Below are positions 22,495 through 64,000 of a stretch of DNA of 64,000 nucleotides, one piece after another (the first letter of the stretch is position 1; each line of letters starts with the position of its first letter). The stretch is from an uncultured Alphaproteobacteria bacterium (GTDB lineage Bacteria > Pseudomonadota > Alphaproteobacteria > RF32 > CAG-239): assembly GCA_944392235.1 (NCBI GenBank), contig CALXVZ010000005.1:3903-67902 (forward strand), read 5' to 3'. A program made the position numbers and the translations under genes. Below the pieces are notes generated by a model. It was not told the DNA's origin, did not search any database, and was given only the letters and a program-made list of their open reading frames with translations.

Positions 22495-23041
22495 TCAGAC
22501 AATACAAATTTCCTCGGAAACTATATTGGAGGAGCCGTTTTACCTTGGTGCCGAGTTTTGGGTAGGAGTGGCATTTGTCATAGTTGTTTTTGCGCTATTT
22601 AGACCAATAAAAAAGGCTCTAAAAAGCTTATTAACTAGAAGAATTATTAGAATAAAGAAAGAGCTTCAAGAAGCAGAAAATATAAAATTAGAAGCACAAA
22701 AGCTATATTCAGACTATGAAAGAAAATATTTGAACATCGAAAAAGAGGTTTCAGATATAATAAAAGAGCAAAAAAATGTAATAGAAGAAACAAAGGAAAA
22801 AAAAATAAGAGAATTAAATTTTATGCTACAAAGAAAAGAAAATGAAGTAAACAGAAGGATAGAACAAGAATTTGAACAAGCAGGAAAAGAGATTCGTAGA
22901 AAAATTAGTGAAAAAACAATTGAAATATTAAAAAGAATAATTAGCTCAAAATTAACTAAATCTGAATATAATAATCTAATAGATAATTCTATAAAGCAGA
23001 TAAAGGAAGTGCTTTCAAATAAAGACTGCATTCGGAGATGA
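22478..23041 (+). CDS. atpF: F0F1 ATP synthase subunit b
   Basis: AEFWVGVAFVIVV TM, RI..EL.EA..IKLEAQ coiled coil; last F0 gene. Confidence 0.88.
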   Translation: MNTENNQTIQISSETILEEPFYLGAEFWVGVAFVIVVFALFRPIKKALKSLLTRRIIRIKKELQEAENIKLEAQKLYSDYERKYLNIEKEVSDIIKEQKNVIEETKEKKIRELNFMLQRKENEVNRRIEQEFEQAGKEIRRKISEKTIEILKRIISSKLTKSEYNNLIDNSIKQIKEVLSNKDCIRR

Positions 23042-23991
23042 AAATGGAACTACTTCAACACAATTTTTCAGATTTATATATAAATGCAAAAAAAGATTTT
23101 TATATTTCAGATGAGAAATATGTAAATAGCCTAAAGAGAGTGGCCCCAGATGATAAGGATGAATTTTGCGAAAAATTGTTTTCCATAGAACATAAAACAA
23201 GCTCCTACTCAATGAACTATAAAGGAACATTTTTCCGTGTAGAAAATGTAATGAGTGTAAATGGGGAGCTATACTGTTTACGCCGAATGCCTCTAACAAT
23301 TCCGAGTATACATAATTTAGGTTTCGATCATAGATTCGTTCAGTACATGTTATCACTAGTATCGCAAAGCGGATTAATAATATGGGGTGGTGCTACAGGA
23401 TCAGGTAAAACAACATCAATATCCAGTTTATTAACGGAGTATCTCAATTTAGAAGGAGGTTTTGCCTATACGATTGAGGACCCCGCAGAAATGCCTTTGG
23501 AAGGAGAATATCAATCATTTAATGGGTCAATTGGTTTTTGTAAACAAACAGAGGTTCAAAATGATAATTGGCAAGATCCTCTAAAATCTGCATTACGCTC
23601 CAAGCCAAGATACATACTAATTGGAGAGATAAGAACTCCAGATGCTGCTTGCGAATGCTTGCGTGCAGCAATATCGGGACATTTAGTTTTAACAACAATT
23701 CATGCTAGCTCAATAACAGATGCACTGAGTTCATTAGTGAAGTATGCAAGCTTTAGTATGAGCGAAAGTTCTGCTTATGACATTTTATCGCGAGGATTAC
23801 TGGCAGCAGTAAAGCAAGATTTGGTTGGAACAGAGAATCATAGAAAACCACATTTGGAAGTGTTATTTGCAAATCCTGATTTAAACAAGGGATGTTCTGT
23901 TCGCTCAATAATAAGAAGTGGAAAATTAAACTTAGCAACATCAATAGAGATGCAAGCAGCAAGATTAGCTCAATCTGTTCCATTATTCTAA
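23038..23991 (+). CDS. PilT/DotB/TraJ-like secretion-superfamily ATPase
   Basis: IIWGGATGSGKTT Walker A, TIEDPAE Asp box, ILIGEIR Walker B, GHLVLTTIHA His box, SVRSIIRSGK resembling the PilT AIRNLIRE motif. Confidence 0.85.
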   Translation: MKMELLQHNFSDLYINAKKDFYISDEKYVNSLKRVAPDDKDEFCEKLFSIEHKTSSYSMNYKGTFFRVENVMSVNGELYCLRRMPLTIPSIHNLGFDHRFVQYMLSLVSQSGLIIWGGATGSGKTTSISSLLTEYLNLEGGFAYTIEDPAEMPLEGEYQSFNGSIGFCKQTEVQNDNWQDPLKSALRSKPRYILIGEIRTPDAACECLRAAISGHLVLTTIHASSITDALSSLVKYASFSMSESSAYDILSRGLLAAVKQDLVGTENHRKPHLEVLFANPDLNKGCSVRSIIRSGKLNLATSIEMQAARLAQSVPLF

Positions 23992-23994
23992 GGA

Positions 23995-24648
23995 TTACTT
24001 TAGAGACCAAATAACAGTATTATTTCTACTACTGCAAAATTCTCGACTTGAGTACTTCTTTACAGGAAGCGAATTTTTAGCACCCCAAGTAAAAATAAAT
24101 TCGCCAGAATCATTAACGATAGAGATTTTATCTAACAATAGAAGTTGTTGATCGGAAAAGCCAGCCTCAACATAAGCAATACATTGCGATTTATTGAGGT
24201 TTGATAAAACAATATCAAAAGTGGTGGATTTAGGCGAAATAGTAGAGGCTTCAGCACCAGAACCAATTTTAACGACAAGATTATCATTAAGAAAGATATA
24301 ATCATCATGGATAATATCTTCAGAAAGAATCTCATTGTCGATAAGATATTTAGTTGATAATCCCCAATAATCAGGTTTACTACTATAAAGAGTATGAATA
24401 CTATCAGCAATAGAAAATAATAAATTAACATTTTTCTGAGTAAGATTTTTAGAAAAAGAACAAGATCCAAAGGCCCAAAAAATAATCATACAAGGGAATA
24501 TAATTTTGATTAAAGCAATACGATTCAAATAAATATAATTCTTTAAGGTTAAAAGATACTTTTCGAATTCTTTTTTCTTTAAGAATAAGAAAAAAGAATT
24601 CGAATAAATCTCTAATTTTTTTTTCAAAAAGACAAAGTACTCACGCAT
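23995..24648 (-). CDS. Type IVb pilin-like protein (PilS-like globular domain) with atypical N-terminus
   Basis: N..LL..IADSIHTLYSSKPDYWGLS and FDIVLSNLNKSQC...C pattern like PilS; directly follows pilR. Start placed at ATG 24648 (MREYF), just after the pilR stop. Confidence 0.6.
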   Translation of the reverse strand: MREYFVFLKKKLEIYSNSFFLFLKKKEFEKYLLTLKNYIYLNRIALIKIIFPCMIIFWAFGSCSFSKNLTQKNVNLLFSIADSIHTLYSSKPDYWGLSTKYLIDNEILSEDIIHDDYIFLNDNLVVKIGSGAEASTISPKSTTFDIVLSNLNKSQCIAYVEAGFSDQQLLLLDKISIVNDSGEFIFTWGAKNSLPVKKYSSREFCSSRNNTVIWSLK

Positions 24649-24652: not shown

Positions 24653-25774
24653 TTATCCCATAGCACTAGTGATTTGATCTTGCATTTCAAACACTCCAAA
24701 CACAGCCCAAGCAATAATACCAGAAATAGCAAACATTGCAACCATGTTCAAGATAGAAGCTTTTTGTTCAACAGCCTCTGCAGATTCGTCAAGCCAATCA
24801 TTAGCCAATCTATCAAGCGCCTCTTCAAAATTATCTAATTCAGCATAAATACGCAAATCTGCAACAATATCTTTATCAGGAAAATTAAGTTTAGTTTTGG
24901 AAAGAGCCTGTCCCAAGTTATCACCATTTTTAATAAAGTCCATAGCTCGGTCAATACGTTCCTGAAGATAACGGTTTGAATCCTTACGAAGAGAAGTTAA
25001 AGCTACAGAGATAGGAACCCCACCCTTAATCAGAGCAGATAAAGAAAGTAACCAAGTAATACCCATAAACATCTTATAGAGAGACCAAGGAGGACAATCA
25101 TCAATAGCTTTTCTAGTAGGCCCCGTCCAAATACCAATTGTTGCGTAAATTAAAAGAAAAAGAGCTGGGAAAAAAGCAAAAGCCAACAACCAATTTTTTT
25201 GAATCCACAAAGAAACAGCAACCAAATCTTTAGCTGTTCCGGTCCATCTAGCATTAGGAGCAGCATCCATCATAGGAGGCACCATATATGCACCAATCGC
25301 ATAAATAACTAGCACAGACATAAGCAACAAGAAAGAAGGATATGCAATAGCACCAATAATAGGTTTAAGCATTTTTTCAGTACCTTCTGCCACGCGAATA
25401 AGGTTCAAAAGGGCACTTTCCAAGTCAGACATATCACCAACAGAAAGCATAAGTCTCTCACGGCTGGGAGCCCAACCCTTAAGAGCATCTGAAAAAGCGT
25501 TACCATTTTGAAGAGATTTTCCCCAAGAAGCAATAGCAATAGCCATAGGTTCGCTAGGATGCTTACCATTATCTGTAATACTATCATACATAATATCGAG
25601 AGCATTCATAAGGGAAAATCTATTTCTAAGAAGAGACGCCAATTTTTTATAAACTTTCAATCTGGCTTTACCAGCCATTCCTACTTTAAACTGAGCAAAA
25701 GTGACCTCAAGAGACCCCAGAGATTTCATTGCTTTATTAAAAGTAGCATTAGATGAATCTTCTTTTTTAGCCAT
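24653..25774 (-). CDS. pilR: Type IVb pilus inner-membrane platform protein (PilR/BfpE, T2SS-F family)
   Basis: VYKKLASLLRN, G..FSDALKGW.P..E..ML, AIAYPSFLL, three TMs, SALIKGGVPI..AL, GDNLGQAL...FP. Confidence 0.85.
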   Translation of the reverse strand: MAKKEDSSNATFNKAMKSLGSLEVTFAQFKVGMAGKARLKVYKKLASLLRNRFSLMNALDIMYDSITDNGKHPSEPMAIAIASWGKSLQNGNAFSDALKGWAPSRERLMLSVGDMSDLESALLNLIRVAEGTEKMLKPIIGAIAYPSFLLLMSVLVIYAIGAYMVPPMMDAAPNARWTGTAKDLVAVSLWIQKNWLLAFAFFPALFLLIYATIGIWTGPTRKAIDDCPPWSLYKMFMGITWLLSLSALIKGGVPISVALTSLRKDSNRYLQERIDRAMDFIKNGDNLGQALSKTKLNFPDKDIVADLRIYAELDNFEEALDRLANDWLDESAEAVEQKASILNMVAMFAISGIIAWAVFGVFEMQDQITSAMG

Positions 25775-25784: not shown

Positions 25785-27464
25785 CTAATAAACAGGACGC
25801 TGATCGATTAATCCACACCAACGCTCAACTTCATCCATATCAATTTGTCCTTTAATCATCCTCTCTATGGCAGCATCTTTAAGTGGTCTTCCATTTAATT
25901 CACTAACCCAATAGTCAATAGCCTTTGCTGTTTCATTATCAATCATAAGACGCAAGAAACGAGAGTCTGGCAAAATAATTTCATCAACAGCCATTCTTCC
26001 TTTAAAACCTTTGTAACCGCAAGCTTTACAACCTGGACCGCTAACAAAAACATTTTCAATACCATAATCGCCTAAAGCATTTTTCAATCTTTCAAATTCA
26101 GGAGACCCTTCTTTAGTTTTAATAGATTGTCTACAATTAGGACAAAGTTTTCTAAACAAACGTTGTGACACAAGTCCCTTAACTAATTCCGGGTCATTAA
26201 GCAAATAAGGTTGGATACCCATATCACGTAAACGAGTAACAATAGCAGGAGCTGAGTTAGCGTGCAATGTTGTCCACACACCGTGACCAGATAGAGCACC
26301 TTTAAATGTTAATTCCGCTGTAGACAAAGAACGTGTTTCACCCACCAGAATTACATCCGGGTCAGAACGTAAAGCTGCAGATAAGGCTTTTGTGAATTGC
26401 TCATTTTTTTCTTCCTCAGTATTCGCATTGGTAACAGGCATTTGTCTTGCCCCTGGAATAGGATACTCAGGAGGATCTTCCACAGTTAAAAGGTTAATTT
26501 GATAATTTTTTTCTTGCAACAGTTTAATCATATTACGTTGCAAGGTTGTTGATTTACCAGAACCGGTAGGTCCTGCAACAACGTTTAGCCCCACAGCCAT
26601 ACTTCTCATTTTATAGAAAAGGTCTTCTTCGTATTTACCAAGACCAAGAGAACGTAAATCTGAACTTCCCTCAGGATTATCATCAGCATACAAAAGACGC
26701 ATAACCAGATATTGCGAACCAAAAGCAATAGGGTTAAATTGCAAACGAATAGCTAAAACATTGTGAGGAAGCATTAATTTACCTTTAGATCCTCTCAATG
26801 GGGTGGAACCCAACTTTTGAGCTCCTTGGAATTCATTTTGAGAGTAGTTAGAGTCAGAAATATCGGCAGAAGCAAAAACAGAACGAACAAAAGCTTCTCC
26901 CCATTCTCCACCATACTCATTTTGCTTAACCATAATACCATTTTCGCGGAACAAAACAGTTGAAGAAGAACCAACGATAACGTGAATATCGGAAACCTTC
27001 TTTTGAGATGCACGTTGAATAATATTAATAAAGTCAATTTGCATCTGCATATCTTCAGCTTCTTCAGCCGAAACGTCGACAGTTCCTCCCCCACGTTCTG
27101 CATAAGCATAGATTGCGGAAATTTCGTTTAGAGTTACATACCTAGGAGCTTTAATAGGTATTTTTCTTCTTTTAACATTAGCTTCAAAGTTATATACAGC
27201 ACCATCAAAACGATTATCTTTAGAAACCAAATAAGTGCCATCAGAAAACAATGCTAACAATCTACGAGTTTCATTTGAAATCGCAAAATCAGAACCACTA
27301 ACAGTAAGCAATTTATTATTGTTGGCAAATAACTGATCAAAAAGATTCCCTTTTTTTGCTTGAGAAGCAGAAGTATCTTCTTCTTCGAAATTAGATTCCG
27401 TAGAAGTTTTAGCTTTCTCTTCCATATCTTTTTGTAATTCTTCAGCCATAATAACAACCTTCAA
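25785..27464 (-). CDS. pilQ: Type IVb pilus assembly ATPase (PilQ/BfpD, GspE family)
   Basis: SDIHV, VAGPTGSGKSTTL, TVEDPPEY, ALRSDPDVILVGETR, SGHGVWTTLHANSA, zinc motif CPNC...CKAC. Confidence 0.9.
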   Translation of the reverse strand: MKVVIMAEELQKDMEEKAKTSTESNFEEEDTSASQAKKGNLFDQLFANNNKLLTVSGSDFAISNETRRLLALFSDGTYLVSKDNRFDGAVYNFEANVKRRKIPIKAPRYVTLNEISAIYAYAERGGGTVDVSAEEAEDMQMQIDFINIIQRASQKKVSDIHVIVGSSSTVLFRENGIMVKQNEYGGEWGEAFVRSVFASADISDSNYSQNEFQGAQKLGSTPLRGSKGKLMLPHNVLAIRLQFNPIAFGSQYLVMRLLYADDNPEGSSDLRSLGLGKYEEDLFYKMRSMAVGLNVVAGPTGSGKSTTLQRNMIKLLQEKNYQINLLTVEDPPEYPIPGARQMPVTNANTEEEKNEQFTKALSAALRSDPDVILVGETRSLSTAELTFKGALSGHGVWTTLHANSAPAIVTRLRDMGIQPYLLNDPELVKGLVSQRLFRKLCPNCRQSIKTKEGSPEFERLKNALGDYGIENVFVSGPGCKACGYKGFKGRMAVDEIILPDSRFLRLMIDNETAKAIDYWVSELNGRPLKDAAIERMIKGQIDMDEVERWCGLIDQRPVY

Positions 27465-27481: not shown

Positions 27482-28990
27482 TTACTTTTTCTTTGTATCT
27501 GTAAGTCCTAAAGTTGGAATATAACCATCAATAGATCTGCCTACATATAGATAATCATCATAACCATCTCTAGTAAATTTGACGTAATCAGCGCCAATTT
27601 CGCTAACAACATGTCCTGAAGGCAGCGGAGATCCTACTTTTAAGGAAATAGGTTGTCCATCAACATCAATAATATCAACACTCATATTACCTGCTTGTCC
27701 ACTAATACCCAAGATGGCATATTTAGCACTAAGTTTCTCAGGAGCTTTCTCTTCTTCAACAAGTTCTTCTGTTGTCGCAGAAGCTTCCATAGCCGCAGCT
27801 TGAGCAGCTAAAGCAACATTAGCAGCATTTTTATTTTTTAATTCCTCAATAGACTGAGATTTGAGATATAAGCTATTTTTAGCGTTTTTAATAATTTGAG
27901 CATCAGCTTCAACACGTTTACGAAGTTGTTCATTTCTAGATTTTAAATTTTTTACAATACGCTCAAAATTAGCACGAGCAGCTTCAGCAACTTGTATATT
28001 TTTAGCAGAAGCTTCAAGAACTTTGTTAATTCTATCTTTGAAAAGTTCAATTAATTGTTTCTTTTCATCTTCAAGAGCCTTTATTTGCGCATAGAGACTT
28101 TCTTTTTCTTTCAACCACTCTTGATTATTTACAAGCATTTGATTCATATACGCATTAAGAAGTTTACGCTGTTTTAAAATTTCAAACAATTGCTCTTTAT
28201 CAAGTAGAGCTTGTTTTTCTTGTAAAACCTGAGCTTCTATTTTCTTTTTTCTCTCTAAATCTTTTAACTTTTGCTCTTCTTTAAGGCGTTCTTGATCATC
28301 AATATTCTTTTGACGAATAGCCTTTTGAGCCTCGATTTCGTTACGAATTTTTTCACGACGTAACTCAAGAGTGAGCAAAGTTGTGCTCTTTTCGATTTCT
28401 GACATCTTAGAAAAAAGATCACTATCCATTTGTGATAGAATACTATTTCCCAAAGCTTCAACAGGATTAGCCTCATATTGAATATCCTTAGGCAAATCAG
28501 CATCATTTAGAGCGGAAGCTGAAGAATTAACACCAGAAGAAGACGGAGCAACACTATGAGGGGCATTATTTGTCGGAGCATTGAGCGATTTCATTTTCAA
28601 ATCAAAATTAAAATCATCAGATACAGGAGCCGCTCCTCCATTACCGATAGAATGATTTTGCTGTGCAATAGGCGGTATTGTGGAATTTGAGTCTGATGAT
28701 GCTATTGTTTTTAAGTTAGCATTAGTAACAGCAGCAGTATTTGGAACAACATTATTCACATTTGCAGGAAGCTGTCTTGCAGCAGGAACATTTTTAGGTT
28801 GCGAAGGAGAAACCAAAGCAGGAGCATTTTGCTGTTGAGACGAGTTTACTTGTCCTGCTTGAGAAGCAACATTTATAGGAAGAGTCGCATCACTAAGTTT
28901 TGCATCTGCAATATTCACAGACTGAGCATAAGACGAACCAACTGTAGCAATAGAGATAAGCAATCCCCCGAAAAATTTTTTACTGAGCAT
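27482..28990 (-). CDS. pilP: PilP-like type IVb pilus protein with long low-complexity and coiled-coil extension
   Basis: Signal peptide; C-terminal YAILGISGQAG...LKVGSPLPSGHVVSEI typical of PilP; position between pilO and pilQ; start ATG 28990 after GAGGGG. Confidence 0.65.
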   Translation of the reverse strand: MLSKKFFGGLLISIATVGSSYAQSVNIADAKLSDATLPINVASQAGQVNSSQQQNAPALVSPSQPKNVPAARQLPANVNNVVPNTAAVTNANLKTIASSDSNSTIPPIAQQNHSIGNGGAAPVSDDFNFDLKMKSLNAPTNNAPHSVAPSSSGVNSSASALNDADLPKDIQYEANPVEALGNSILSQMDSDLFSKMSEIEKSTTLLTLELRREKIRNEIEAQKAIRQKNIDDQERLKEEQKLKDLERKKKIEAQVLQEKQALLDKEQLFEILKQRKLLNAYMNQMLVNNQEWLKEKESLYAQIKALEDEKKQLIELFKDRINKVLEASAKNIQVAEAARANFERIVKNLKSRNEQLRKRVEADAQIIKNAKNSLYLKSQSIEELKNKNAANVALAAQAAAMEASATTEELVEEEKAPEKLSAKYAILGISGQAGNMSVDIIDVDGQPISLKVGSPLPSGHVVSEIGADYVKFTRDGYDDYLYVGRSIDGYIPTLGLTDTKKK

Positions 28991-30257
28991 ATATTGTCCC
29001 CTCATAATTCCATACGCCACCATTATAACGTATACTATTAATCTTAAGTCCTGAAAATTTTGTTAACATCGGTCTCCAAATTTCTGGATCATATTTAGAA
29101 TTAATTTTAAAATTTAATGTTTCATAAACTTTTTTACCAGCTCTAACTTTACCATTAGAAAGAGAAATAGACATATTTAACGTTTGAAATAAATCATTAA
29201 TCATATTTCTAAGTTCATTAATATTTTTTGTCGGTAAAGCATTAATTTTTTTCACAGCTTGAAAAGGAAGCGATACTGTAATAGAAGTTCCCCTAGGATC
29301 TATAGTTTTATTAGTAAACGACATACCCGAGTAAGATAGAGCCATTTCAATCCAGGAGAGACGACCAAACTCTCTTCTCCAAGAAGTAACCACTCCCGAG
29401 GCAGAGCATGTAACACCCGTATTTCTCCAACCCGGAGTAGAAATAGAAACCAACGACTGAATAGAGTTTCTACAATTATCTAGTATCCAATTGGTTTCAA
29501 CAACAGATTCCCATGGTGCCGGAACAATTTTTTCAACTTCTTTAACTACTTTCTTTTTAGCTCGCCGAGTAACAATTTTATTTTGTTGCGTCTTAGTTGT
29601 AAAAAAAGTATTAGCAATAAACATAATAGCCCAAGCACCGGCTGCAATAGATAAAACTACAACAATAGCAAGTTCAGCACCACGAAGAGCATTAATTTTT
29701 TCTAATTGAACATCCAGACCTTGAGCAAAAATTTCAGAAATATTTTTTTGTTCAGTATCGTCAATATCCCATTCTTTAGGAGCAATTTTTCTAGACCAAT
29801 CGGGCACAGAAAGCATAGACATAAATTGTTCGCGAGCATCTTCTTCTTTTACAAATAAGACATCGCCATCTGATAAAATAACATCATTTCTGACGCATAA
29901 ATACCAATAACCAGCATCTACTTTAAAAACAGCAAGCAAAGAAGAAGCGTCACTCATAGCTGTAACAGCATTTACAGCAGCCACTTTTGTGCCTTTTTTA
30001 AATCCTTGGGAAGAAACAGCTAAACCCAATTGAGGAGATTTACCATGTTTAACACAAAATAAATCAGCACCAACCAAAACATTCTCAGCAGCTTCTTTAG
30101 CATCCAAAAAAGGAGCATCTATATTTTGCAGACTTTCCCAAAAGAGACTTGCTGCATAAGGAACGCCATCAACAGTAAAACTAGAAGCCCATTCCTTACT
30201 ATTCTCTCTAGAAGGATCATCTGAAAAAATTAAATCATTTTCTTCTTCTGCAACCAC
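28980..30257 (-). CDS. pilO: Type IVb pilus accessory protein PilO
   Basis: YAASLFWESL, GYWYLCVRNDVILSDGDVL, central TM, PAPW...C...PGW....VTC; position after pilN. Confidence 0.8.
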   Translation of the reverse strand: MVAEEENDLIFSDDPSRENSKEWASSFTVDGVPYAASLFWESLQNIDAPFLDAKEAAENVLVGADLFCVKHGKSPQLGLAVSSQGFKKGTKVAAVNAVTAMSDASSLLAVFKVDAGYWYLCVRNDVILSDGDVLFVKEEDAREQFMSMLSVPDWSRKIAPKEWDIDDTEQKNISEIFAQGLDVQLEKINALRGAELAIVVVLSIAAGAWAIMFIANTFFTTKTQQNKIVTRRAKKKVVKEVEKIVPAPWESVVETNWILDNCRNSIQSLVSISTPGWRNTGVTCSASGVVTSWRREFGRLSWIEMALSYSGMSFTNKTIDPRGTSITVSLPFQAVKKINALPTKNINELRNMINDLFQTLNMSISLSNGKVRAGKKVYETLNFKINSKYDPEIWRPMLTKFSGLKINSIRYNGGVWNYEGTIYAQ

Positions 30258-30266: not shown

Positions 30267-31871
30267 CTAAAACTTCATACGAGACTCAGGCATCAAAGGA
30301 GATTCTAGCACAACAGGAGTTAACAAAATAACAACAATACTACGAGTTTTATCAACTTTTTGATGTCCACCCAGAATATTATTATTAACAGCTCCTAAAC
30401 CTGCTTTATCACTAGTCGTTTCAACACGTTCATAACCAGAGAGAACCAAAGTTTCACCTGATTTTAAAGCAACTTCTTGAGAGAAGCCTCTTTCTTCAAT
30501 AATTGGATTCTGAATATAACCAGATTCCTCTGAACTATCGAGATTAACATTTTCAAGATCTAACAAGTCAGAAAGGCTAAGACTGAAGAGCATCATTAAA
30601 CGTCCATGATCCATAATACGAGGTAAAACATCAAGTGTAAAACCTGTCTCAATTTCTTCAGTTTCGACAGTAACATCATAACTAGCCTCACCACCCACGG
30701 TTCCGTTATTTGTTTTTGTATATTCAGAAATATAATTCTGTGTCTTTACAACTTGAATTGGTGCTGGTTTATTATTCATAGTAGTTACAGTACCACTAGT
30801 GACAAGTGTTGTTACACCTTGGGTTGAAAGAGCCTGAATAGCAGCATTTACAGTAACATCACCACTCAAAATTTTCATGGACATACCGCTATTACCATCG
30901 ACCAATCCTTTTGGACCAAAGTTACTATCACCCAAAGTAATATTTCCACCAGAAGCCGTTCTATCTTTAAAAGCTGCATTAAGATCGAAACCAAAGCCAC
31001 GAGATTCGTCAACCTCTACTTGTAATACTTTAACGCTTATAGCAACTTGACGAGAAAGGCGAATATTTTGCTCATTTACAAATTTAGATACTTTTTTTAT
31101 TTCTGTAGGAGTAGCTGTAATTGTCAAAGTTCCGTTCATTGGATCTGTTACTAAACTAGAACCTTTTCCGAGCATAGATTTAACTGCAGTAACAATATTT
31201 CCCCATAAGTCAATACCAGAAACCCCACTAGTAATACTACCACCACCAGAAGAACTGCTTACGCTGGAGGTCATAGAAGGTTTAGTTGGTAAGGTATAAA
31301 GAGTGAAAGTTTTAGTTGTATATTTATAGATGTATAACTCACCGTGTTCATATTTCCACCAGACACCAAAGCGTGAACAAACCTCATCAAGTAAACCACT
31401 TAAAGGGCCTTTATATGAAACAAGCATTCTTGATGTATCTGACCATTTAGACCCAACTTTTGAAACGGTAGGAGCATTTTTATCAGCTGCTGCTTTAGCC
31501 TCACTTTCAAGTTGAGGCGCAAAACGAATTTTAATAGAAGTAATTTGACTAATCATATTACCTATTTCATATAAAGTAATAGGTCTGTTACTAACCAAAG
31601 TAACACCATCAGCCGTTTCCAAATAACTAGGCAATGGTTTATCACCCTCATACTCTATTTCACTAGTATCTCCAAGCCAAATATCATCTTTAATACGAAT
31701 AACATCCGTATCAGCAACGGTTTGAGGAGCTTTTGCATCTTCTTTATATTTGATAGTTGCATCAACATCACGCTCCAAAGCTGCATCAAAATCTGTTGGT
31801 AAAGAACAAGAAGCAACACCTAACAGTAAGAAAGAAGCAAATCCAAGTAAACATTTTTTATTAGTAAGCAT
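30267..31871 (-). CDS. pilN: Type IVb pilus secretin lipoprotein PilN
   Basis: Lipobox LLGVASC, RQVAISVKVLQV, NNKPAPIQV, GFTLDVLPRI, VALKSGETLVLSGYE, IVVILLTPVV. Confidence 0.9.
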   Translation of the reverse strand: MLTNKKCLLGFASFLLLGVASCSLPTDFDAALERDVDATIKYKEDAKAPQTVADTDVIRIKDDIWLGDTSEIEYEGDKPLPSYLETADGVTLVSNRPITLYEIGNMISQITSIKIRFAPQLESEAKAAADKNAPTVSKVGSKWSDTSRMLVSYKGPLSGLLDEVCSRFGVWWKYEHGELYIYKYTTKTFTLYTLPTKPSMTSSVSSSSGGGSITSGVSGIDLWGNIVTAVKSMLGKGSSLVTDPMNGTLTITATPTEIKKVSKFVNEQNIRLSRQVAISVKVLQVEVDESRGFGFDLNAAFKDRTASGGNITLGDSNFGPKGLVDGNSGMSMKILSGDVTVNAAIQALSTQGVTTLVTSGTVTTMNNKPAPIQVVKTQNYISEYTKTNNGTVGGEASYDVTVETEEIETGFTLDVLPRIMDHGRLMMLFSLSLSDLLDLENVNLDSSEESGYIQNPIIEERGFSQEVALKSGETLVLSGYERVETTSDKAGLGAVNNNILGGHQKVDKTRSIVVILLTPVVLESPLMPESRMKF

Positions 31872-32982
31872 TCTCATTCTCCATTGTTTCAACAACTATA
31901 ACTCTATTACCTTTATAATATGTAGCAATCGGTGCAGGACGAGCTCTTGCAAAGGCTCTGATAAGAGCAGAACTGACATCGGCAAATTTTCCTTTAAACA
32001 TAACACCGGCACTTAAAATATAATTACGATTTGTATTCCATAGAAGTTTCCAGCCAGACATAGCACTCCACTTAGTAAGGAGTTCACGCAAATTTTCTCC
32101 TTCTTCTGCTTCCCAAGTTAAAACAGTATCATCGCCTACCTGAATTTCAGCTATATCAATATCTGTAATAATTTCATTTTGTTTACCAATATTAGTGAAT
32201 TCGATATTTTCATCGTCTACATAATCCGCAATATCAAAAGATTCTTCTGTAAATTCTGAAGTTATAACATCTTCATCAATAATATCATCACATTCCTCTT
32301 CACAAACGATTTCATAGGTAGAACCATCATCCGCTACACTTTTTCTAATTTTCTTCATACCAACAATTTCAATATTATTAGCACGACCAACTTTATTTTT
32401 AGGTTCTGCTATGTTTTTTGAAATAAGTTTCCCTTTTAAGTTACTTTGTGGATCATCTTTAGTGGTAATTTTAGCGCCCGATTGAGATAAAGATTGTGTT
32501 GCATTATCTGAGGCATCTATAACATCTTGATCGGCCAATGTGTAATCTTTGCGTGAAGGTTCTAAATCAAAAGATGCTGTTTGAGAAAACACCCCGTCAT
32601 CAACGGTGTATTTTATATTATCTTTTTTGACAATTGGTTTTATTTCGGTTTTTTGTGGAACGACAATATCAGCCTCTATATCAGGTTGTATAGATGAAGC
32701 TAAATTATTTCCAACGGAAGATTGAGTGTAAAGATGGTCGCGTTTAGTTCTCTCGCCATAAGCTCTATAATCAGCCTCTGTTTTGGAGTAATTTACCAAT
32801 GGCGTATCATTACAAGAAATACCATTTACACCACAACGATTCTGCGGGTTAATGGTTGCATCGATAACTTGAGTATCGTCTTCCTCTATTAAGGGAGCTT
32901 GATAAGAACTATTAGTGCTATTGCAAGCTGAAAGGCTACAAGCGCATAATAAATAAAATGGTAATACAAAATTTTTCTTCAT
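31861..32982 (-). CDS. PilL/TcpQ-domain lipoprotein
   Basis: Lipobox CSLSAC; C-terminal TWEAEEGENLRELLTKWSAMSGWKLLW...Y...F.G.F TcpQ-type domain; first gene of pil operon. Confidence 0.75.
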   Translation of the reverse strand: MKKNFVLPFYLLCACSLSACNSTNSSYQAPLIEEDDTQVIDATINPQNRCGVNGISCNDTPLVNYSKTEADYRAYGERTKRDHLYTQSSVGNNLASSIQPDIEADIVVPQKTEIKPIVKKDNIKYTVDDGVFSQTASFDLEPSRKDYTLADQDVIDASDNATQSLSQSGAKITTKDDPQSNLKGKLISKNIAEPKNKVGRANNIEIVGMKKIRKSVADDGSTYEIVCEEECDDIIDEDVITSEFTEESFDIADYVDDENIEFTNIGKQNEIITDIDIAEIQVGDDTVLTWEAEEGENLRELLTKWSAMSGWKLLWNTNRNYILSAGVMFKGKFADVSSALIRAFARARPAPIATYYKGNRVIVVETMENENAY

Positions 32983-34703: not shown

Positions 34704-34734
34704 AATAATGTATAATGAATTTAGGAGAATTGAA

Positions 34735-35091
34735 ATGAAAAAAATGAAAACAATGTTAAACTTCTGCTTTATGGTGCTTGCATTTACTGTATTGTTTACA
34801 GATGTAACATTTGCAGCAGAAGGAAACTCTGTAATGGAGTTAGGTATGAATAAAGCATTGACGTTGTTTGTTCATATAAGAACAATTATCTTCGTTGTTG
34901 GTGCTTTTGGTTTGGTTGGTATTGCATTCCAAGCTATTTTTGGAAAAGTTAAATGGACATGGTTTGCTGGTTTGGCTGTTGGGTTAGCTATATTGGCTGC
35001 AGCTGGTGCTATTGTTAACTACGCTACAGGTGGTAACATAACCTCCAACCAAACACATGATACATTTACAAACTCAGCAAATGGTTTGTAA
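34735..35091 (+). CDS. virB2: VirB2/TrbC-family T4SS pilin, copy 1 (probable major pilin)
   Basis: Long signal peptide ending TFA, two hydrophobic helices with FGK...W.W loop; codon usage (GTT/GGT/GCT/TTC/AAC) typical of highly expressed genes. Confidence 0.75.
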   Translation: MKKMKTMLNFCFMVLAFTVLFTDVTFAAEGNSVMELGMNKALTLFVHIRTIIFVVGAFGLVGIAFQAIFGKVKWTWFAGLAVGLAILAAAGAIVNYATGGNITSNQTHDTFTNSANGL

Positions 35092-35097
35092 TAATAG

Positions 35098-35149
35098 TCT
35101 AATAACAATAAAAAAGGGGAGGGTTCTCCCCTTTTTTATTGTTATTAGA
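35098..35149 (+). terminator. 24-bp perfect inverted repeat, strong intrinsic terminator after virB2 copy 1
   Basis: tctaataacaataaaaaaggggag-ggtt-ctccccttttttattgttattaga. Confidence 0.85.
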
Positions 35150-35290
35150 TAAATATCTAATTGTATGAAGTTTTTGTTACAGAGTGAAAAAAATAATAAA
35201 AACAAAGAGATGATAAGAATAGTGTTTAACGGATTTTTCTGGATTTTTTATATATTTTATGATATAATTTCCCAAAAAAAGGGGGGTGTG

Positions 35291-35623
35291 ATGTGTGAAA
35301 AAAATAGAGTATTGCTTTTAATATTACTAGCACTAGTAATAATTAATTTCCCAGGAGTTTCTTATGCTGCGGGGATGTTTGAACCATTAAAAAATGCTGG
35401 AAGAACAATTTTTGAGGGGTTAAGACAAATTATCTATCCTGCTTCAGCTGTGGGTATAATAGCAGTATGTATTGGTGGATTTTTTGGAAATATCAACTGG
35501 AAATGGTTGACAGCCATTATTTTAGGCTTAGTGGTAATAACATTGTGTGTGCAGTTTGTGGCAATGTTTGCTCCATCTGATGCCGCAGATGAGATAGGTG
35601 AGAGACTGAGTATAGGAGCGTAG
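35291..35623 (+). CDS. virB2: VirB2/TrbC-family pilin, copy 2
   Basis: Signal peptide ending SYA; GIIAVCIGGFFGNINWKWLTAIILG matches copy 1; start ATG 35291 after GGGGGG. Confidence 0.7.
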   Translation: MCEKNRVLLLILLALVIINFPGVSYAAGMFEPLKNAGRTIFEGLRQIIYPASAVGIIAVCIGGFFGNINWKWLTAIILGLVVITLCVQFVAMFAPSDAADEIGERLSIGA

Positions 35624-35626
35624 AAA

Positions 35627-38838: not shown

Positions 38839-38882
38839 TTCACAACTTAAGCATATGAAATATGCAAGTTAGGGGGGAAATT

Positions 38883-39926: not shown

Positions 39927-39997
39927 TATTTTATATTAATAGAATATAAATAAGTCATAGAATATATGTATGATAAAATTATGATGGAGGGCATAGA

Positions 39998-42190: not shown

Positions 42191-42192
42191 CA

Positions 42193-42909: not shown

Positions 42910-42912
42910 ACT

Positions 42913-44226: not shown

Positions 44227-44238
44227 AAGACGGAGGAT

Positions 44239-50740: not shown

Positions 50741-51499
50741 ATGGTGGAACAGATATCTTCTGAAAATACAAAAAAAATATTATTGGAAGGGCAAAAAGGA
50801 ACCTATCCTCATGCAAAAATGTCAAGAGCATATAAAAAAGGCTCTGCAGACGTTATTGTTGAGAATGCGACGGAGAAGAGGTATTTATGGACAGCAAGAG
50901 CTTTTGCAATTATTTTTGCAGTAAGCGTATGCTGTAATTTGATACTAACTTATGTCATCTTTGCAATTATGCCATTGTATCGCGTTGAGCCATATTTATT
51001 AAGTTTTACAGATAAAAAGGATCAAATATATAATGTTGAGCCTGTGAGGAATATATATGAATATAAATATTTAACGGAGATATTTATAAGAGAGTATGTA
51101 TTACTTAGAAATACTTTTGTAAATGATATTGAGGAAATGGAGCTTCGTTGGGGACCAGGAGGAACAATTCAAGAAATGTCATCAACAGGAGTATATGATA
51201 AGTTTAAAAAAGAGTTTGCTGATCCTGCTCTGGAAATAATTCGTCAACATAATATAACAAGAAACATAAAAATATCATCTGTTACCGAAGTTGGTGGAGC
51301 AAATGGGGAAAATTGGTGGCAAGTCGAATTTAGAGTGGAAGACATGATGCCAGAATATGAAACCCCAAGAGTAAGTGTTTGGGTTGCTTCAATAAAAATA
51401 AGGTATAGAGCAAAACGAGTGACATTTGGAGAGAGATTGAAAAATCCATTAGGATTTACAGTATTAGATTATAAACAAGTAGAGCGTAAAACAAATTAA
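50741..51499 (+). CDS. virB8: VirB8-family protein, copy 2
   Basis: TM then MPLYRVEPYLL, FIREYVLLR, W.VEF, LKNPLGFTVLDY. Confidence 0.85.
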   Translation: MVEQISSENTKKILLEGQKGTYPHAKMSRAYKKGSADVIVENATEKRYLWTARAFAIIFAVSVCCNLILTYVIFAIMPLYRVEPYLLSFTDKKDQIYNVEPVRNIYEYKYLTEIFIREYVLLRNTFVNDIEEMELRWGPGGTIQEMSSTGVYDKFKKEFADPALEIIRQHNITRNIKISSVTEVGGANGENWWQVEFRVEDMMPEYETPRVSVWVASIKIRYRAKRVTFGERLKNPLGFTVLDYKQVERKTN

Positions 51500-59759: not shown

Positions 59760-62700
59760 TTGCAAAGAGTAAGATTAAAAATAAAAAATATAACTAAACT
59801 AGTATTGCTTTTAATAATAATAAGCCTAAAAGCGATAGCCGCCGATATTAGTGCTCTTAATTTTAATGGAGATTTAATAGGAAAAGTAATACCGGATGGA
59901 ACAGTCGTAAACGAAAATAATGAAGTTATTGGCTATATGACTGCAGATGGTCTGATTTATGATAATCAGAAAGAATTAATAGGCGGTGTAATTCCGCAAG
60001 GGATGGCTATATCAAATAACAATAAAATACTTGGAAAAATTAATAATGATGGTTCTGTGACATCGATAAATAATGCATTAGTCGGCAAGGTGTTACCCAA
60101 TGGATTAGTTGTAAATGATAGTTATGATGTTCTAGGAGCTGTAATACCAACAGGTCTTGTCTATAATGATTTAGGTTTAGTAGTAGGAAGAGTATCAGGA
60201 GATGGTAAATATTATAATTTAACAGGCGAAAATAATGGCTTTGTAACAGTAAACGGAGATGTTTATGGATATCAAGGTGTAGATGGACAGATAGCATTAA
60301 TAGGAAAATTAATTTCATCAAAGATAGTTCTTTCATCAACAGGAAAATTTATAGGAAGTTTAGCACCTGATGGAAAGGTTATTAATAATCAAAAGAAAAT
60401 GCTAGGTAAAATACATGCAAATGGGTATGTATTTAATGAAGAAGGTAATGCTATAGGAAAAGTAGTAAAAGAAGGATATGCATTCAATAATAATGGAGCT
60501 TATATTGGTATTGTTAGCTATAATGGAGATATCATAAATAAAGGGATAATAATAGCCAAAGCTATTTCTGGAAATAGAGTTATAAATAAGGAAGGTCAGC
60601 GCATTGGTTTTACACTAAGTTCAATGACGACTGCAAATAATTTAAAAGGGGAATATTTAGGAAGACTATCTGCAAAAGGAGAGATTTTAAGAAAAAGAAA
60701 TGTAGTAGGAAAGATTGGAGCGAATGGTAATATTGTAAATGAAAAAGGAGAGTTAATAGGAACTATAAATTATGCAGGACCTATATTTGACTACCTTGGA
60801 AATTTAAAAGCAAATGCGTCAATAAATGGAAAGGTATATTCCTTAGAAGGTATAGAAGTAGGACTAATAAGAGAAAAAGAAGGATTTGATAATGCAGGAA
60901 AAGTTATCGGCTCTTTATTAGATGAAAGTGTATGTTTCAATAACACAAATGAATTTATAGGTATAAGTGGAATAGGAACAAAGCTTGAAAAAAATGGAAA
61001 AATATATAAAATATCACCTAATGGGTATGTTTTTGATGAAAAAGGCACAATTGGCGGTGGAACAGTAAAATTTGGAGAAATATACACAGCAGAAGGCACG
61101 CCACTAACTTACATATCTGATAATGGAAATACAGAAACATCTAGTTTAAATGAAATAGCTAAAATAACAAATGGCGGACTATATATAGATAAAAATAATA
61201 AGTTATTAGGAAAGCAAATACAAGGCAAATATGTTACAAATTTTGCAGGCGAAACGCAAGGATATACAGGAAAATCGAATTTTGTAGTAAATGATGAAAA
61301 CAAAGTATATGGCAAAATACTACCTAATAATGATGTTGTAGGAATATCAGAACGTTTCTCACAAAATTATGGTAAAGCAGATAACAAAAATTTAAGTATA
61401 AGCATAAATGGAGACTATCTAGGTTCAAGCACTCTAGAAGGAAAGATTGTTAATGGGAATGAAATCGTAGGTAAAATAAGCTCTAACGGATATGTTGTAG
61501 ATAATACAGGAGCCCTATACGGAAAAACAGTAAACTATGGTAGTATAATTTCACCAAAATGCGAAGTTTTAGGAGTTGTATCTGATAATGGGGAAGGAAG
61601 GACTTCGCAGGGAGCATATCTGGGAATGATATTGGCAAATAAACAAGTTCTTTCAGACACAGAAACTTTAGTAGGGTATGTGGTAGAGCCACAGGTAATA
61701 AACGGAAAAGAAGGAAAAGTTATTGGAATAAGTAGTCCTATAGGTAATACTCTAACGTATAATAATGAAAATTTAGGATGTATAGATTGGCAGGGTAAAG
61801 TAAGAAACTCACAAGGAGAAATCGTAGGACAAACAATACCATCCATGTCAATAATGGGCTATGATAATAAAATTGTTGGATACACAACTTTTGGTGGAAA
61901 AATTATAGACAATTCTGGATTAGAAATTGGTTATATGGATATCAATGGAGAAATAAAGTCAAAAGACGGAAAAAATATTGGGGTTCCTTTTCTATATACA
62001 GTAGCCTTTGATTTTAATAATACATATCTAGGGCGTATAAACACAGAGGGACAAGTAGTATCGGACCAAGGAGTAATACTCGGAAATACACAGTATAATG
62101 GATTAGTTAAAAGTTCGAACGGAAATATAGGATATGCTTTATATGATTTATATGTATATGATAATGAAGGAAAAACAATAGGATATATATCAAAAAATGG
62201 AAAGGTTTATAGTATTTTAGGAGAAATACAAGGAACAATCTATCAGGGTTTTGTTTTAGATAAGAAACAAAACCTCATAGGAAGAGGATTACGCGATTAT
62301 AATATAAGAGATAAACAATATAATATAATCGGAGAATTGAAATTAGATGGTAGAGTAATAAATATCCAAAATATAGAAGTAGGTAAATTAGGTGAAGATG
62401 GTCAAATATTAAATGCAAGAGGAGAAGTGATAGCAATAGCAGAAAAGTTGCAATACTATCAAAAACCCAAAATTGTAGCACCAAAATCAGAAGTAGAGAT
62501 ACAAGAAAAAAAGAAAGATAATATAACAGATACAGAGATAAGAACTGAAGAAGCTAAAGAAACTAAAGAAACAGAAGAAAACAATACACTTGCTGAAAAA
62601 AAGGAAGAAGTAATAACACCTGCAGAACAAATAAGAGATAGTGAAAAAGTAATAGGAATAGCTGTAACACCGGGTGGACGCTATATTGGAGATATATATA

Positions 62701-64000
62701 GCGACAATAGTGTAATAGATGAAGAAGGAAAAATTATAGGAAAAAAGAATGAAAAAGGAGAGATTATAGATAACAAAGGACAAAATATAGGGATAATTGA
62801 GCAGAAAGAATATCAAACAACCAAAGATATTAATCCTAATAGACGAGCACAAATTTCAGCTGGAACAACAATTGATCCATATAATATAGGTAATTCAATC
62901 ACAAATGTAGGTCCTGGAGGAGGTATAGGTCCAGGAGGAAGATATAATCCACGTCGAGCAGCAATTTTATCGCAATTACAAGAAGAGCGCCGGAGGACAA
63001 TGGTCGCAGCAAAAATAAATCCAGGTTATGATGCGGCATCATACACAGGATGGCAAGACAATTGGGGAATTGGGCGAACCATATCAACATTACGAGTAAA
63101 CATGGATAATATGATAACAGGAGATAAACCAATACCTGCAGTTTTAGCAAGGTCATTAATATCATTAGGAGAAGCCCCTGTTACAGCAATAGTTGAGCGG
63201 AATATCTATGGGGATTCTGGACGTAATGTTATTATACCTGCAGGAAGTAGGATAATCGGGGGGTTACAAGCAGCTGAAGGCCGATCCAGATTTGATGGAA
63301 CGAGTGGTGGTGTAAAAATGGATATAGCCTGGGAAAGGATAATCCGCCCTGATGGAATAGCCTTTTTGTTATCGCCAGGAAGAACAAGAACTGGTGATGC
63401 ACAAGGACGAGGAGGCGGAGCTCTAGGATATGTGGATGAACAGTTGGTGAAAAAATATACACTTCCAATAGTTGGCACAATGGTTGCATCCGCAGTAACA
63501 TATATGATGGCTGCAGATGAAGATAGCACGGGAGAGGTGGAAACATCAAAGCAACAAGCAGCATCAGATGCAAGACAACAATTCATGGAGAAAATGGATC
63601 AAATATTACAAGAAATTATAGATAGTAAGTCGCAAATTGAACCTGTAACATTTATTCCTGCGGGCACAAGGGTAATTATATATCCTATGCAAGATTTATG
63701 GCTGAGAAGTACAAAAGAAATAGAAAAAGGAATAAGCGCTACCGGTATAGATGGAGGAAGAGGTGGCCTAGTTAATGAGACATATTATGGATCTGGCGGT
63801 GGAACAACTACTATCGACGGTAACAATAGTCAAGGCAGTCAAAAGGTTATACTTGGCAACCAAGGGCAAAACACAAATTCAAATGAAGGTGGTGGAACCC
63901 CATTGATAAATGAAGGACCTTCAAATAATCAACCTCAAAAGCCAAATAAAAATATAGGAGCAATTCCTCCTCCAACAGCTGATGGAACGGAGATACAAGA
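59760..64000 (+). CDS. virB10: Giant VirB10/TrbI-family protein (at least 1413 aa, 3' truncated) with about 50 N-terminal 17-aa repeats
   Basis: Manual translation: GGAGG RBS, TTG 59760, no stop to window end. Core at about 63100-63704: MITGDKPIPAVL...VTAIVERNIYG..GRNVIIPAGSRIIG, IAWERIIRPDG, DAQGRGG..GYVD, IEPVTFIPAGTRVIIYPMQDL. Confidence 0.9.
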   Translation, partial: MQRVRLKIKNITKLVLLLIIISLKAIAADISALNFNGDLIGKVIPDGTVVNENNEVIGYMTADGLIYDNQKELIGGVIPQGMAISNNNKILGKINNDGSVTSINNALVGKVLPNGLVVNDSYDVLGAVIPTGLVYNDLGLVVGRVSGDGKYYNLTGENNGFVTVNGDVYGYQGVDGQIALIGKLISSKIVLSSTGKFIGSLAPDGKVINNQKKMLGKIHANGYVFNEEGNAIGKVVKEGYAFNNNGAYIGIVSYNGDIINKGIIIAKAISGNRVINKEGQRIGFTLSSMTTANNLKGEYLGRLSAKGEILRKRNVVGKIGANGNIVNEKGELIGTINYAGPIFDYLGNLKANASINGKVYSLEGIEVGLIREKEGFDNAGKVIGSLLDESVCFNNTNEFIGISGIGTKLEKNGKIYKISPNGYVFDEKGTIGGGTVKFGEIYTAEGTPLTYISDNGNTETSSLNEIAKITNGGLYIDKNNKLLGKQIQGKYVTNFAGETQGYTGKSNFVVNDENKVYGKILPNNDVVGISERFSQNYGKADNKNLSISINGDYLGSSTLEGKIVNGNEIVGKISSNGYVVDNTGALYGKTVNYGSIISPKCEVLGVVSDNGEGRTSQGAYLGMILANKQVLSDTETLVGYVVEPQVINGKEGKVIGISSPIGNTLTYNNENLGCIDWQGKVRNSQGEIVGQTIPSMSIMGYDNKIVGYTTFGGKIIDNSGLEIGYMDINGEIKSKDGKNIGVPFLYTVAFDFNNTYLGRINTEGQVVSDQGVILGNTQYNGLVKSSNGNIGYALYDLYVYDNEGKTIGYISKNGKVYSILGEIQGTIYQGFVLDKKQNLIGRGLRDYNIRDKQYNIIGELKLDGRVINIQNIEVGKLGEDGQILNARGEVIAIAEKLQYYQKPKIVAPKSEVEIQEKKKDNITDTEIRTEEAKETKETEENNTLAEKKEEVITPAEQIRDSEKVIGIAVTPGGRYIGDIYSDNSVIDEEGKIIGKKNEKGEIIDNKGQNIGIIEQKEYQTTKDINPNRRAQISAGTTIDPYNIGNSITNVGPGGGIGPGGRYNPRRAAILSQLQEERRRTMVAAKINPGYDAASYTGWQDNWGIGRTISTLRVNMDNMITGDKPIPAVLARSLISLGEAPVTAIVERNIYGDSGRNVIIPAGSRIIGGLQAAEGRSRFDGTSGGVKMDIAWERIIRPDGIAFLLSPGRTRTGDAQGRGGGALGYVDEQLVKKYTLPIVGTMVASAVTYMMAADEDSTGEVETSKQQAASDARQQFMEKMDQILQEIIDSKSQIEPVTFIPAGTRVIIYPMQDLWLRSTKEIEKGISATGIDGGRGGLVNETYYGSGGGTTTIDGNNSQGSQKVILGNQGQNTNSNEGGGTPLINEGPSNNQPQKPNKNIGAIPPPTADGTEIQ
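59840..62450 (+). repeat. 17-aa coding repeats within virB10
   Basis: SALNFNGDLIGKVIPDG TVVNENNEVIGYMTADG LIYDNQKELIGGVIPQG MAISNNNKILGKINNDG..., the same unit as the upstream giant protein but more divergent. Confidence 0.8.

Follow-up and report, generated by a model that had tools for sequence, protein, structure and literature searches.

A type IVb pilus operon beside a remodelled VirB-type secretion system on the chromosome of an uncultured gut alphaproteobacterium

Gene content of the locus and its parts in trans

The genome of an uncultured alphaproteobacterium of the lineage RF32; CAG-239 (G000; 1.29 Mb in 31 contigs, 33% G+C, estimated to be 77% complete) carries, in a stretch of 64,000 nucleotides here called the window (C5:3903-67902, contig CALXVZ010000005.1), the genes of a type IVb pilus (T4bP) and of a VirB-type type IV secretion system (T4SS) side by side. 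The machine locus extends from 23038 to 64000 of the window, with the T4bP operon on the minus strand and the virB cluster on the plus strand diverging from each other (Table 1). All parts of the two machines that an earlier note, made from the letters of this DNA alone, had named there were recovered in searches with Pfam and NCBIfam profiles.

The R64/IncI-type core set of PilN, PilL, PilO, PilQ and PilR is present in the expected order, and the pilL-N-O-P-Q-R-S operon of the earlier note stands except for its 'pilS', which has no prepilin cleavage signal. Matches to PAP_PilO, TcpQ, T2SSE and T2SSF all lie above their cut-offs, and PilN reached 259.8 bits with TIGR02520, just below the curated cut-off of 287.65. 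PilQ is 34-36% identical to BfpD and to the T4bP ATPases of alphaproteobacterial plasmids, PilR is 95% identical to its orthologue in the congener G015 (deposited as 'Acetobacter sp. 46_36'), and the gene in the PilP position corresponds to a hypothetical gene between pilO2 and the ATPase on a Bosea plasmid. The signal-anchored protein encoded at the head of the operon evolves fast (33-52% identity among congeners). The left side of the locus is closed, as the earlier note had it, by a PilT/DotB-like ATPase (91% identity in G015), whose best solved relatives are PilT (2gsz, E=2e-20) and DotB (6geb, E=8e-20) and which is probably the retraction motor of the pilus. Its gene is convergent with the pil operon and is the last of the atpBEFF' transcription unit, the F0 ATP synthase operon that had been reported to abut the locus and that lies directly to its left.

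The protein in the 'PilS' position has a Bundlin-like globular domain, and in its sequence and those of its orthologues we read a lipobox-like GF(G/Y)(S/A)C motif in place of the G|xxxxE signal of prepilins. Its homologue in G037, a member of a sister family, is an in-locus pilin (E=5e-9) that carries a canonical G|RSMIEMLGVLAIVG signal. The G000 protein is probably a pilin derivative that serves as a machine part or a lipoprotein. The operon contains no prepilin with a class III signal; canonical prepilins are encoded in trans only, by two solitary genes amid housekeeping genes on contigs C1 and C8, far from the pil operon. Their leaders, MRVNEQG| and MKRNKIEQAG|, are followed by RSM(I/L)EMLGV, an N-terminus as in the in-locus pilin of G037, and the C1 prepilin and the sister family's in-operon pilin share 48% identity. 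A prepilin peptidase of the A24 family, likewise outside the locus, is encoded on contig C3 and was found in seven of the eight genomes checked. With the prepilins and the peptidase in the genome, the pilus fibre can therefore be built. The open reading frames (ORFs) of the locus, to which our PilV search was confined, gave no match to PilV, and the locus contains no recombinase.

The opposite strand encodes the VirB/D4-type (mating-pair-formation type T, MPF-T; type IVA) components VirB2, VirB3, VirB4, VirB8, a VirB7 candidate, VirB9, VirB10 and, past the window, VirB11, with VirD4 elsewhere in the genome. Profile, blastp and Protein Data Bank searches confirmed the cluster that had been read as three virB2 genes, virB3, virB4, five genes for secreted proteins, virB8-virB7-virB8-virB9 and a giant virB10. 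By blastp the third VirB2 proved paralogous to the first (E=5e-10). Directly 3' of the first virB2 stands a strong hairpin that resembles a terminator and has a T-run; it may be an attenuator that gives a surplus of major pilin over the products of the downstream genes. VirB4 is present in a single copy in the genome and is 82-94% identical within the genus. A 62-aa lipoprotein between the two virB8 genes is a VirB7 candidate by its lipobox and position only. VirB9 contains a long low-complexity linker rich in Q, N, S and E, and only its residues 1-350 are recognisably conserved outside the genus; a SPOR-like match of its C-terminus (E=0.0016) fell below the Pfam cut-off and is not supported.

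The earlier note had suggested looking for virB11, virD4 and virB6 downstream of the window. The first, whose product is 97% identical between G000 and G015, follows directly after the window, and the second adjoins ligA on contig C3. The neighbourhood of virD4 (C3:50780-58383) encodes a polytopic protein of 269 aa, two membrane proteins of 438 and 179 aa and two more proteins, of 534 and 347 aa, that are very acidic, all uncharacterised, which are possible accessory factors or substrates. For VirB6 the outcome was mixed: no polytopic VirB6/TrbL protein is encoded inside the locus, and a tandem array of genes on contig C9 encodes divergent polytopic membrane proteins, five or six in all (426, 468, 436, 189, 333 and 878 aa), two of which match TrbL/VirB6 below the cut-off (24.1 and 18 bits against 25.9). 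The array proteins of 333-878 aa have 5-9 predicted helices and lipoprotein-like N-termini. Of 35 congeners, 33 have the array, and in four genomes it shares a contig with virB4, some 50-80 kb from the main locus; we consider its products probable VirB6-like proteins. They are only 40-60% identical among congeners and vary in their C-terminal extensions, and some congeners have in-frame stops in these genes.

The five genes between virB4 and the first virB8 (X1-X5) encode proteins with a signal peptide and no further transmembrane (TM) segment, for which reason we rejected them as VirB6 candidates. Each begins, after the signal peptide, with a TrbJ/VirB5-like motif (AFWPVLDF, AFVWPTIDL or similar). 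In Pfam and NCBIfam searches of X1-X5 only X1 gave a weak TrbJ match (E=6e-4); X1 also has weak hits to TrwJ (E=0.04) and TraC/VirB5 (E=0.5). X1 and X2 are paralogous (E=1e-16), and X3 has the same N-terminal module (hhalign probability 89%). Run against 1.84 billion representative proteins, a profile built from the orthologues of X1 gave only 184 hits, and five of the ten remote hits that were scanned are bona fide VirB5 proteins (PF07996). For X1, AlphaFold predicted a long helical bundle (pLDDT 75) whose structural matches were generic bundles and ClyA-like shapes only; this is compatible with VirB5 and not diagnostic of it. The model of X3 (pLDDT 64) had no structural match. The rate of evolution of X1-X5 is about five times that of VirB4 (mean pairwise distances of 0.56-0.63 and 0.125, respectively). 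The array of secreted proteins is ancestral, since outgroups too have four or five genes of this kind, and no polytopic gene, between virB4 and virB8. These features point to fast-evolving VirB5 derivatives, probably acting as pilus-tip or surface adhesins.

The most enlarged component is VirB10. Downstream of virB9 lies the gene for a 2091-aa inner-membrane-anchored protein, made of a short cytoplasmic tail, one TM segment and about 20 beta-flower domains, and after it virB10 itself, whose product combines an N-terminal anchor, about nine beta-flower domains and a C-terminal TrbI barrel; the repeats of the two proteins are homologous. In a genome of another family (G060:C14, ~75.0-83.5 kb) a single ORF of 2831 aa comprises the anchor, at least 14 beta-flower matches and the TrbI barrel. 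We therefore read the 2091-aa protein as the N-terminal 'half' of a split giant VirB10, in which the beta-flower domains (about 30 in the pair) replace the proline-rich periplasmic linker. The two-gene state (35-nt overlap) is conserved in G015 and G022, and so is not a sequencing error. The beta-flower fold (PF21785) was described in 2023 without a known function (PMC10584680). Recombinational switching in the manner of CagY was considered for the repeat genes and rejected, because their DNA repeats are short and only 76-85% alike. Together with the five VirB5-like proteins and the three VirB2, the giant beta-flower VirB10 bears out the enlarged and expanded parts of which the earlier note had spoken.

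Table 1. Features of the machine locus and of related parts elsewhere in genome G000 (window coordinates unless a contig is named; aa, amino acids; RBS, ribosome-binding site).
Feature	Position	Strand	Evidence
PilT/DotB-like hexameric ATPase, 317 aa	23038..23991	+	Pfam T2SSE E=2.7e-30; NCBIfam PilT/PilU family E=1.7e-33
Pilin look-alike ('PilS' position), ~217 aa from ATG 24648	23995..24648	-	Pfam Bundlin E=5.8e-6
PilR, inner-membrane platform (GspF/PilC family)	24653..25774	-	Pfam T2SSF E=2.3e-26, two stretches
PilQ, pilus extension ATPase (GspE/BfpD class)	25785..27464	-	Pfam T2SSE E=3.4e-62
Secreted protein in PilP position, 513 aa	27482..29023	-	signal peptide; TIGR03021 pilP_fam E=0.021 at residues 389-483 (weak C-terminal match)
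PilO, bitopic T4bP accessory protein	28980..30257	-	Pfam PAP_PilO E=4.8e-13
PilN, lipoprotein secretin	30267..31895	-	Pfam Secretin E=8.6e-17; TIGR02520 PilN-family IVB secretin E=4.3e-77
PilL, lipoprotein with C-terminal TcpQ domain	31861..32982	-	Pfam TcpQ E=5.1e-17; N-terminal lipobox
Signal-anchored protein at head of pil operon, 459 aa	33078..34457	-	no Pfam/NCBIfam match
Three VirB2/TrbC pilin paralogues (127, 152, 122 aa)	34708..35995	+	Pfam TrbC E=3.6e-8 and 1.9e-9
Terminator-like hairpin	35100..35147		hairpin with T-run
VirB3	36070..36360	+	two TM segments; E=2e-11 to annotated VirB3 of Microvirga pMVF16-3
VirB4 ATPase	36350..38803	+	Pfam CagE_TrbE_VirB PF03135 E=1e-9; TrwK 7o41 E=5e-44
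X1-X5, five VirB5-like candidates (354, 730, 238, 437, 1798 aa)	38862..49635	+	signal peptides, no further TM segment
VirB8 paralogue a (more divergent)	49642..50400	+	Pfam VirB8 E=3.9e-10
VirB7 candidate, 62-aa lipoprotein	50543..50731	+	lipobox LAAC, second Cys in LKLSPC
VirB8 paralogue b	50741..51499	+	Pfam VirB8 E=5.7e-19; Bartonella VirB8 4mei E=3e-5
VirB9, 655 aa	51519..53486	+	Pfam CagX E=5.4e-13
Inner-membrane-anchored beta-flower protein, 2091 aa	53483..59758	+	Pfam Bflower_2 E=1e-126, 20 stretches; TM segment 17-35
VirB10, about 1430-1442 aa, start TTG 59760 with RBS	59760..64000, end ~64049 past window	+	Bflower_2 E=5e-51; TrbI E=5.6e-27
VirB11	immediately past window end		TIGR02788 E=6.5e-47; Brucella VirB11 2gza E=3e-23
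VirD4, 739 aa	C3:51540-53759		PF02534 E=5e-54
A24 prepilin peptidase	C3:123822-124160		Peptidase_A24 E=5e-18
Solitary prepilin	C1:165941-166603	-	canonical leader
Solitary prepilin	C8:26845-27498	-	canonical leader
Array of polytopic, VirB6-like candidates	C9:1761-9770		TrbL/VirB6 matches below cut-off
Tyrosine recombinase, XerD/XerC-like	18565..19479		NCBIfam; syntenic in a relative

Chromosomal setting and conservation

The locus is chromosomal, origin-proximal, vertically inherited and old. On its left are the genes of an XerD/XerC-like recombinase, dciA, a dsbA-like gene and atpB-E-F'-F, and on its right, past the window, engB, yidC, yidD, rnpA, recF, dnaN and dnaA, the last about 6.5 kb from the locus end. 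When the whole region was compared with those of G015 and G022, gene order and flanks were identical. The earlier note had seen neither a relaxase nor an integrase in the window. For relaxases this held for the three Pfam families discussed below; a tyrosine recombinase does lie 3.5 kb to the left of the locus, but it is XerD/XerC-like and syntenic in a relative, and we therefore count it as a housekeeping gene. Apart from it we found no integrase near the locus and likewise no plasmid replication genes, and no oriT-associated genes adjoin it; this search of the borders was for genes and did not take in direct repeats. In a genome of another family (G055:C26:2235-8538) the half of the locus with the pilus, virB2-virB4 and VirB5-like genes again abuts dnaA-dnaN-recF-gyrB-like genes, identified from their size and sequence starts only, and origin proximity thus seems to be conserved.

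Relaxases of PF03432, PF03389 and PF08751, the only MOB families searched, were detected neither in G000 nor in 10 of 12 near-complete congeners. Two congeners carry a PF03432 relaxase on small separate contigs (G015:C14:2856-3245 and G024:C19:6655-7041), which may be small mobilisable elements able to use the chromosomal T4SS in trans. Of the 35 genomes sampled from the genus, 33 have VirB4 and all have VirD4 (80-96% identity); both also occur in other families, so that their presence is anything but patchy. The closest VirB4 among 72,556 plasmids is 35% identical and belongs to a Microvirga conjugation cluster with a MobA/MobL relaxase, compared with a span of 38-94% inside the chromosomal VirB4 clade, which by this measure does not nest among plasmid systems. 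Because no relaxase of the three families was found in G000, the housekeeping flanks are alike in congeners, presence is near-universal and plasmid VirB4s are distant, we conclude that the pair is a fixed core feature and not a conjugative or mobile element, in agreement with the domestication proposed in the earlier note, none of whose three refuting conditions was borne out.

A back-translation scan recovered VirB4 in 36 species-level metagenome-assembled genomes from the gut of human, mouse, deer, yak, buffalo and cattle, labelled variously as uncultured Alphaproteobacteria, Rickettsiales, Rhodospirillales or Acetobacter; on every contig that is long enough, pil genes and the five secreted-protein genes surround it. 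A 125-kb contig with the locus (CAVBCV010000002.1, VirB4 69% identical) was deposited as 'Lachnospiraceae bacterium', probably a binning or labelling error. Outside the genus the pairing of pilus and T4SS occurs in G037 of a second family of the order (VirB4 61% identical) and in the other families represented by G060 and G055 (57%). In G058 (41%; G058:C32, ~15.5-34 kb) the secretin, ATPase and platform genes stand between virB9 and virB11; virD4 directly follows virB11 there, and VirB10 was not detected in that stretch. In G112, a genome of 0.9 Mb (38%), pilO, pilQ and pilR lie 14 kb from virB4. The B8-B11 half was not found in the 34.6-kb locus contig of G055, in which housekeeping genes directly follow the array, and no T4bP gene was detected near virB4 in G140. 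An even sample of 401 genomes of the class placed this VirB4 type in about 16 families, all with genomes of 0.9-2.5 Mb; identity steps down from 68% to 38%, and below this there are plasmid-like VirB4s at 33% or less.

Pairwise distances of VirB4 and of PilN/PilO are correlated across 27 species (Pearson 0.75-0.83), as expected if both machines were co-inherited. In the comparison of G000 with G015, identity is 91-97% for motors and inner-membrane parts, 64-84% for the housekeeping genes on the flanks and only 41-62% for the exposed parts, a pattern that fits an essential machine with an outer surface that follows a variable partner or evades recognition. The cell-cycle-type (CtrA) boxes that the earlier note had described did not survive analysis: three were found in the window against 2.4 expected by chance, and the full motif is poorly conserved: of 26 orthologous loci, 8 have it upstream of pilL and no more than three upstream of virB2. 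We therefore rejected them.

Comparison with known systems

The earlier note had stated that IncI2 plasmids pair a T4bP with a VirB-type T4SS, and the literature bears this out: in these plasmids pilus and adhesins promote mating in the gut (PMC9045228, PMC7508951). The G000 locus resembles IncI2 plasmids (TP114, R721, mcr-1 IncI2) in the placement of the two machines side by side, the pilL-N-O-P-Q-R-S order, the VirB2-B11-type channel and the coupling protein, and its genus shares with them a life in the gut. Unlike them it is chromosomal, origin-proximal and vertically inherited, and it has no relaxase, oriT region, PilV or shufflon; its in-operon pilin has no cleavage signal, its prepilins and peptidase are encoded elsewhere, a PilT-like ATPase is present, and identity to plasmid homologues is 34-36%. 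The pilus operon shares with the bundle-forming pilus (BFP) of enteropathogenic E. coli and with Bosea pBSY19_1 the order of TcpQ-like lipoprotein, secretin, PilO2, PilP-position gene, extension ATPase and platform, as well as a second, PilT-like ATPase and the same range of ATPase identity (34-36%). In G000 the gene of the retraction ATPase lies on the other strand and is fused to the atp operon, and the locus has no PilV; the Bosea system has PilV and resides on a plasmid with replication genes.

The rvh system of Rickettsia has the order virB8-virB7-virB8-virB9-virB10-virB11, a K-x-S-P-C-like motif in VirB7, a VirB6 array and dispersed islets (PMC2653234). The G000 system is similar in being chromosomal and without relaxase in a reduced alphaproteobacterial genome, with scattered 'islets' and several divergent, probable VirB6-like proteins; it shares the same B8-B7-B8-B9-B10-B11 order, and its VirB7 candidate has KLSPC and lies between the two virB8 genes, a position that matches islet C (PMC2653234). 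Whereas rvh has no VirB5 and five VirB6 after virB4, G000 has five VirB5-like genes at exactly this place and its VirB6-like array elsewhere; rvh has duplicated VirB4 and VirB9, and G000 has one VirB4. VirB8b matches Bartonella VirB8, whereas Rickettsia RvhB8-II did not reach E=0.01, and we rejected a specific kinship with rvh via VirB8 because the solved Rickettsia VirB8 was unmatched at E<=0.01. The distant clade members G058, G181 and G200 have a single VirB8, so that the duplication would have arisen inside the clade. The likeness to rvh is thus probably convergence. We know of no pairing of rvh with a type IVb pilus.

In the Trw system of Bartonella, homologues of VirB2 and VirB5 are amplified and diversify fast, which has been interpreted as adaptation to host-cell surfaces (PMC2653234). 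G000 is alike in its multiplied and fast-evolving VirB2 and VirB5-like genes. It is unlike Trw, which to our knowledge lacks the coupling protein VirD4, in keeping VirD4 and VirB11 under strong constraint. CagY of the Helicobacter Cag system and DotG of Legionella are VirB10 homologues enlarged by internal repeats between the anchor and the C-terminal barrel. VirB10 of G000 is likewise expanded several-fold by internal repeats from anchor to barrel, but these are unrelated beta-flower domains, and the protein is split into two genes in the genus.

Proposed function and significance

We propose that the locus is the main island of a domesticated chromosomal apparatus for contact-dependent protein delivery, a reading to which we assign a probability of roughly 60% and which is the best available because VirD4 and VirB11 are present and no relaxase was found. 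A retractile pilus of the R64/BFP class would capture a partner cell and pull it close, the T4SS, tipped by the variable VirB5-like adhesins, would dock, and VirD4 would feed protein substrates through the T4SS into the partner. Cooperation of the two machines and a protein nature of the substrates are inferences, as would be any choice of target among a bacterium, a protist and host epithelium. Attachment and effector delivery would then serve a partner-dependent lifestyle. Several points weigh against this proposal. Co-location is no proof of cooperation between two machines; the pilin look-alike is not processable as a pilin, and the pilus machine may thus work in an unusual manner. The VirB5 assignment is transitive and concerns mainly the N-terminal module, the X1 model having matched generic helical bundles only, and the probable VirB6 assignment is based on TrbL matches below cut-off together with membrane topology. 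Finally, with G000 77% complete, a relaxase could have been missed, and two congeners do carry one on small contigs.

These relaxases, along with the conserved VirD4, would also suit an ancient integrated IncI2-like conjugation apparatus that still moves DNA, mobilising small plasmids or cassettes in trans or serving DNA release or uptake, with a pilus that stabilises mating pairs in the gut as in TP114. The combination of T4bP and VirB-type T4SS is the architecture of IncI2, in which the pilus is important for gut transfer (PMC9045228, PMC7508951), and the closest plasmid relative of VirB4 belongs to a conjugation cluster. We nevertheless consider such a DNA-transfer machine unlikely, given that relaxases of the three families are missing from G000 and most near-complete congeners, that no oriT-associated genes adjoin the locus, that PilV and a shufflon are absent from it, and that core conservation across many families would be unexpected for a machine serving occasional mobilisable elements. 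An organelle for adhesion only, in which VirB2, VirB5-like proteins and giant VirB10 build variant surface fibres without translocation, would explain the amplified and fast-evolving VirB2 and VirB5, three and five genes in G000, which are the hallmark of Trw (PMC2653234). The conserved VirD4 argues for substrate translocation over adhesion alone, however, and its presence in every congener, with a VirB11 nearly identical in G000 and G015, points to an active translocation channel, which makes pure adhesion improbable.

It is less probable still that the two systems are independent neighbours, with a pilus for twitching, DNA uptake or adhesion in general, a T4SS of unrelated purpose and an adjacency that is historical. 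The scattering of pilins and peptidase over the genome, the G055 contig without the B8-B11 half and the G140 virB4 without a nearby T4bP gene would fit such a history. Yet adjacency has been kept across several families in differing arrangements, as in G058, the two systems diverge together, and the same pairing is functional in IncI2 plasmids.

As to the lifestyle that contact-dependent protein delivery would support, the ATP/ADP translocase PF03219, a marker of intracellular energy parasites, is absent from the genus, and we rejected an energy-parasite reading on this account. No XVIPCD, the Xanthomonas-type antibacterial effector domain, was found in a search that had no positive control and is uninformative. 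Our literature search found nothing on a T4SS or pilus of this gut clade; for another reduced gut alphaproteobacterial order, to which this genus does not belong, a partner-dependent lifestyle has been proposed on metabolic grounds (PMC12306168). It is tempting to speculate, with more doubt than conviction, that a whole radiation of small-genome Alphaproteobacteria, comprising at least about 16 GTDB families, is defined by a core 'grapple-and-inject' organelle in which a retractile T4bP and a VirB/D4 T4SS, the latter with a giant VirB10 armoured by beta-flower domains and fast-evolving VirB5-derived tips, are functionally fused and which underlies an obligate partner-dependent life (epibiotic, predatory, or attached to protist or host); this would be a second route from conjugation to host interaction, independent of Rickettsiales.

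The pairing of a T4bP with a VirB-type T4SS was known from IncI2 plasmids; here it belongs to the core of an abundant gut lineage and includes several unusual parts. It offers a natural case, outside Rickettsiales, in which an apparatus of conjugation type has become a fixed, chromosomally encoded organelle, and an example of probable convergence with rvh and Trw through gene duplication and diversification of surface parts. For arrays of beta-flower domains, the periplasmic span of VirB10 is the first functional context found in this analysis. The bacteria that carry the locus are common in human, mouse and ruminant gut metagenomes and are uncultured, and since two large envelope machines are maintained whose motors are more conserved than the neighbouring housekeeping genes, the locus is a strong lead to their way of life, with VirD4, the VirB5-like tip proteins and the pilins as handles for finding the partner cell and the substrates.

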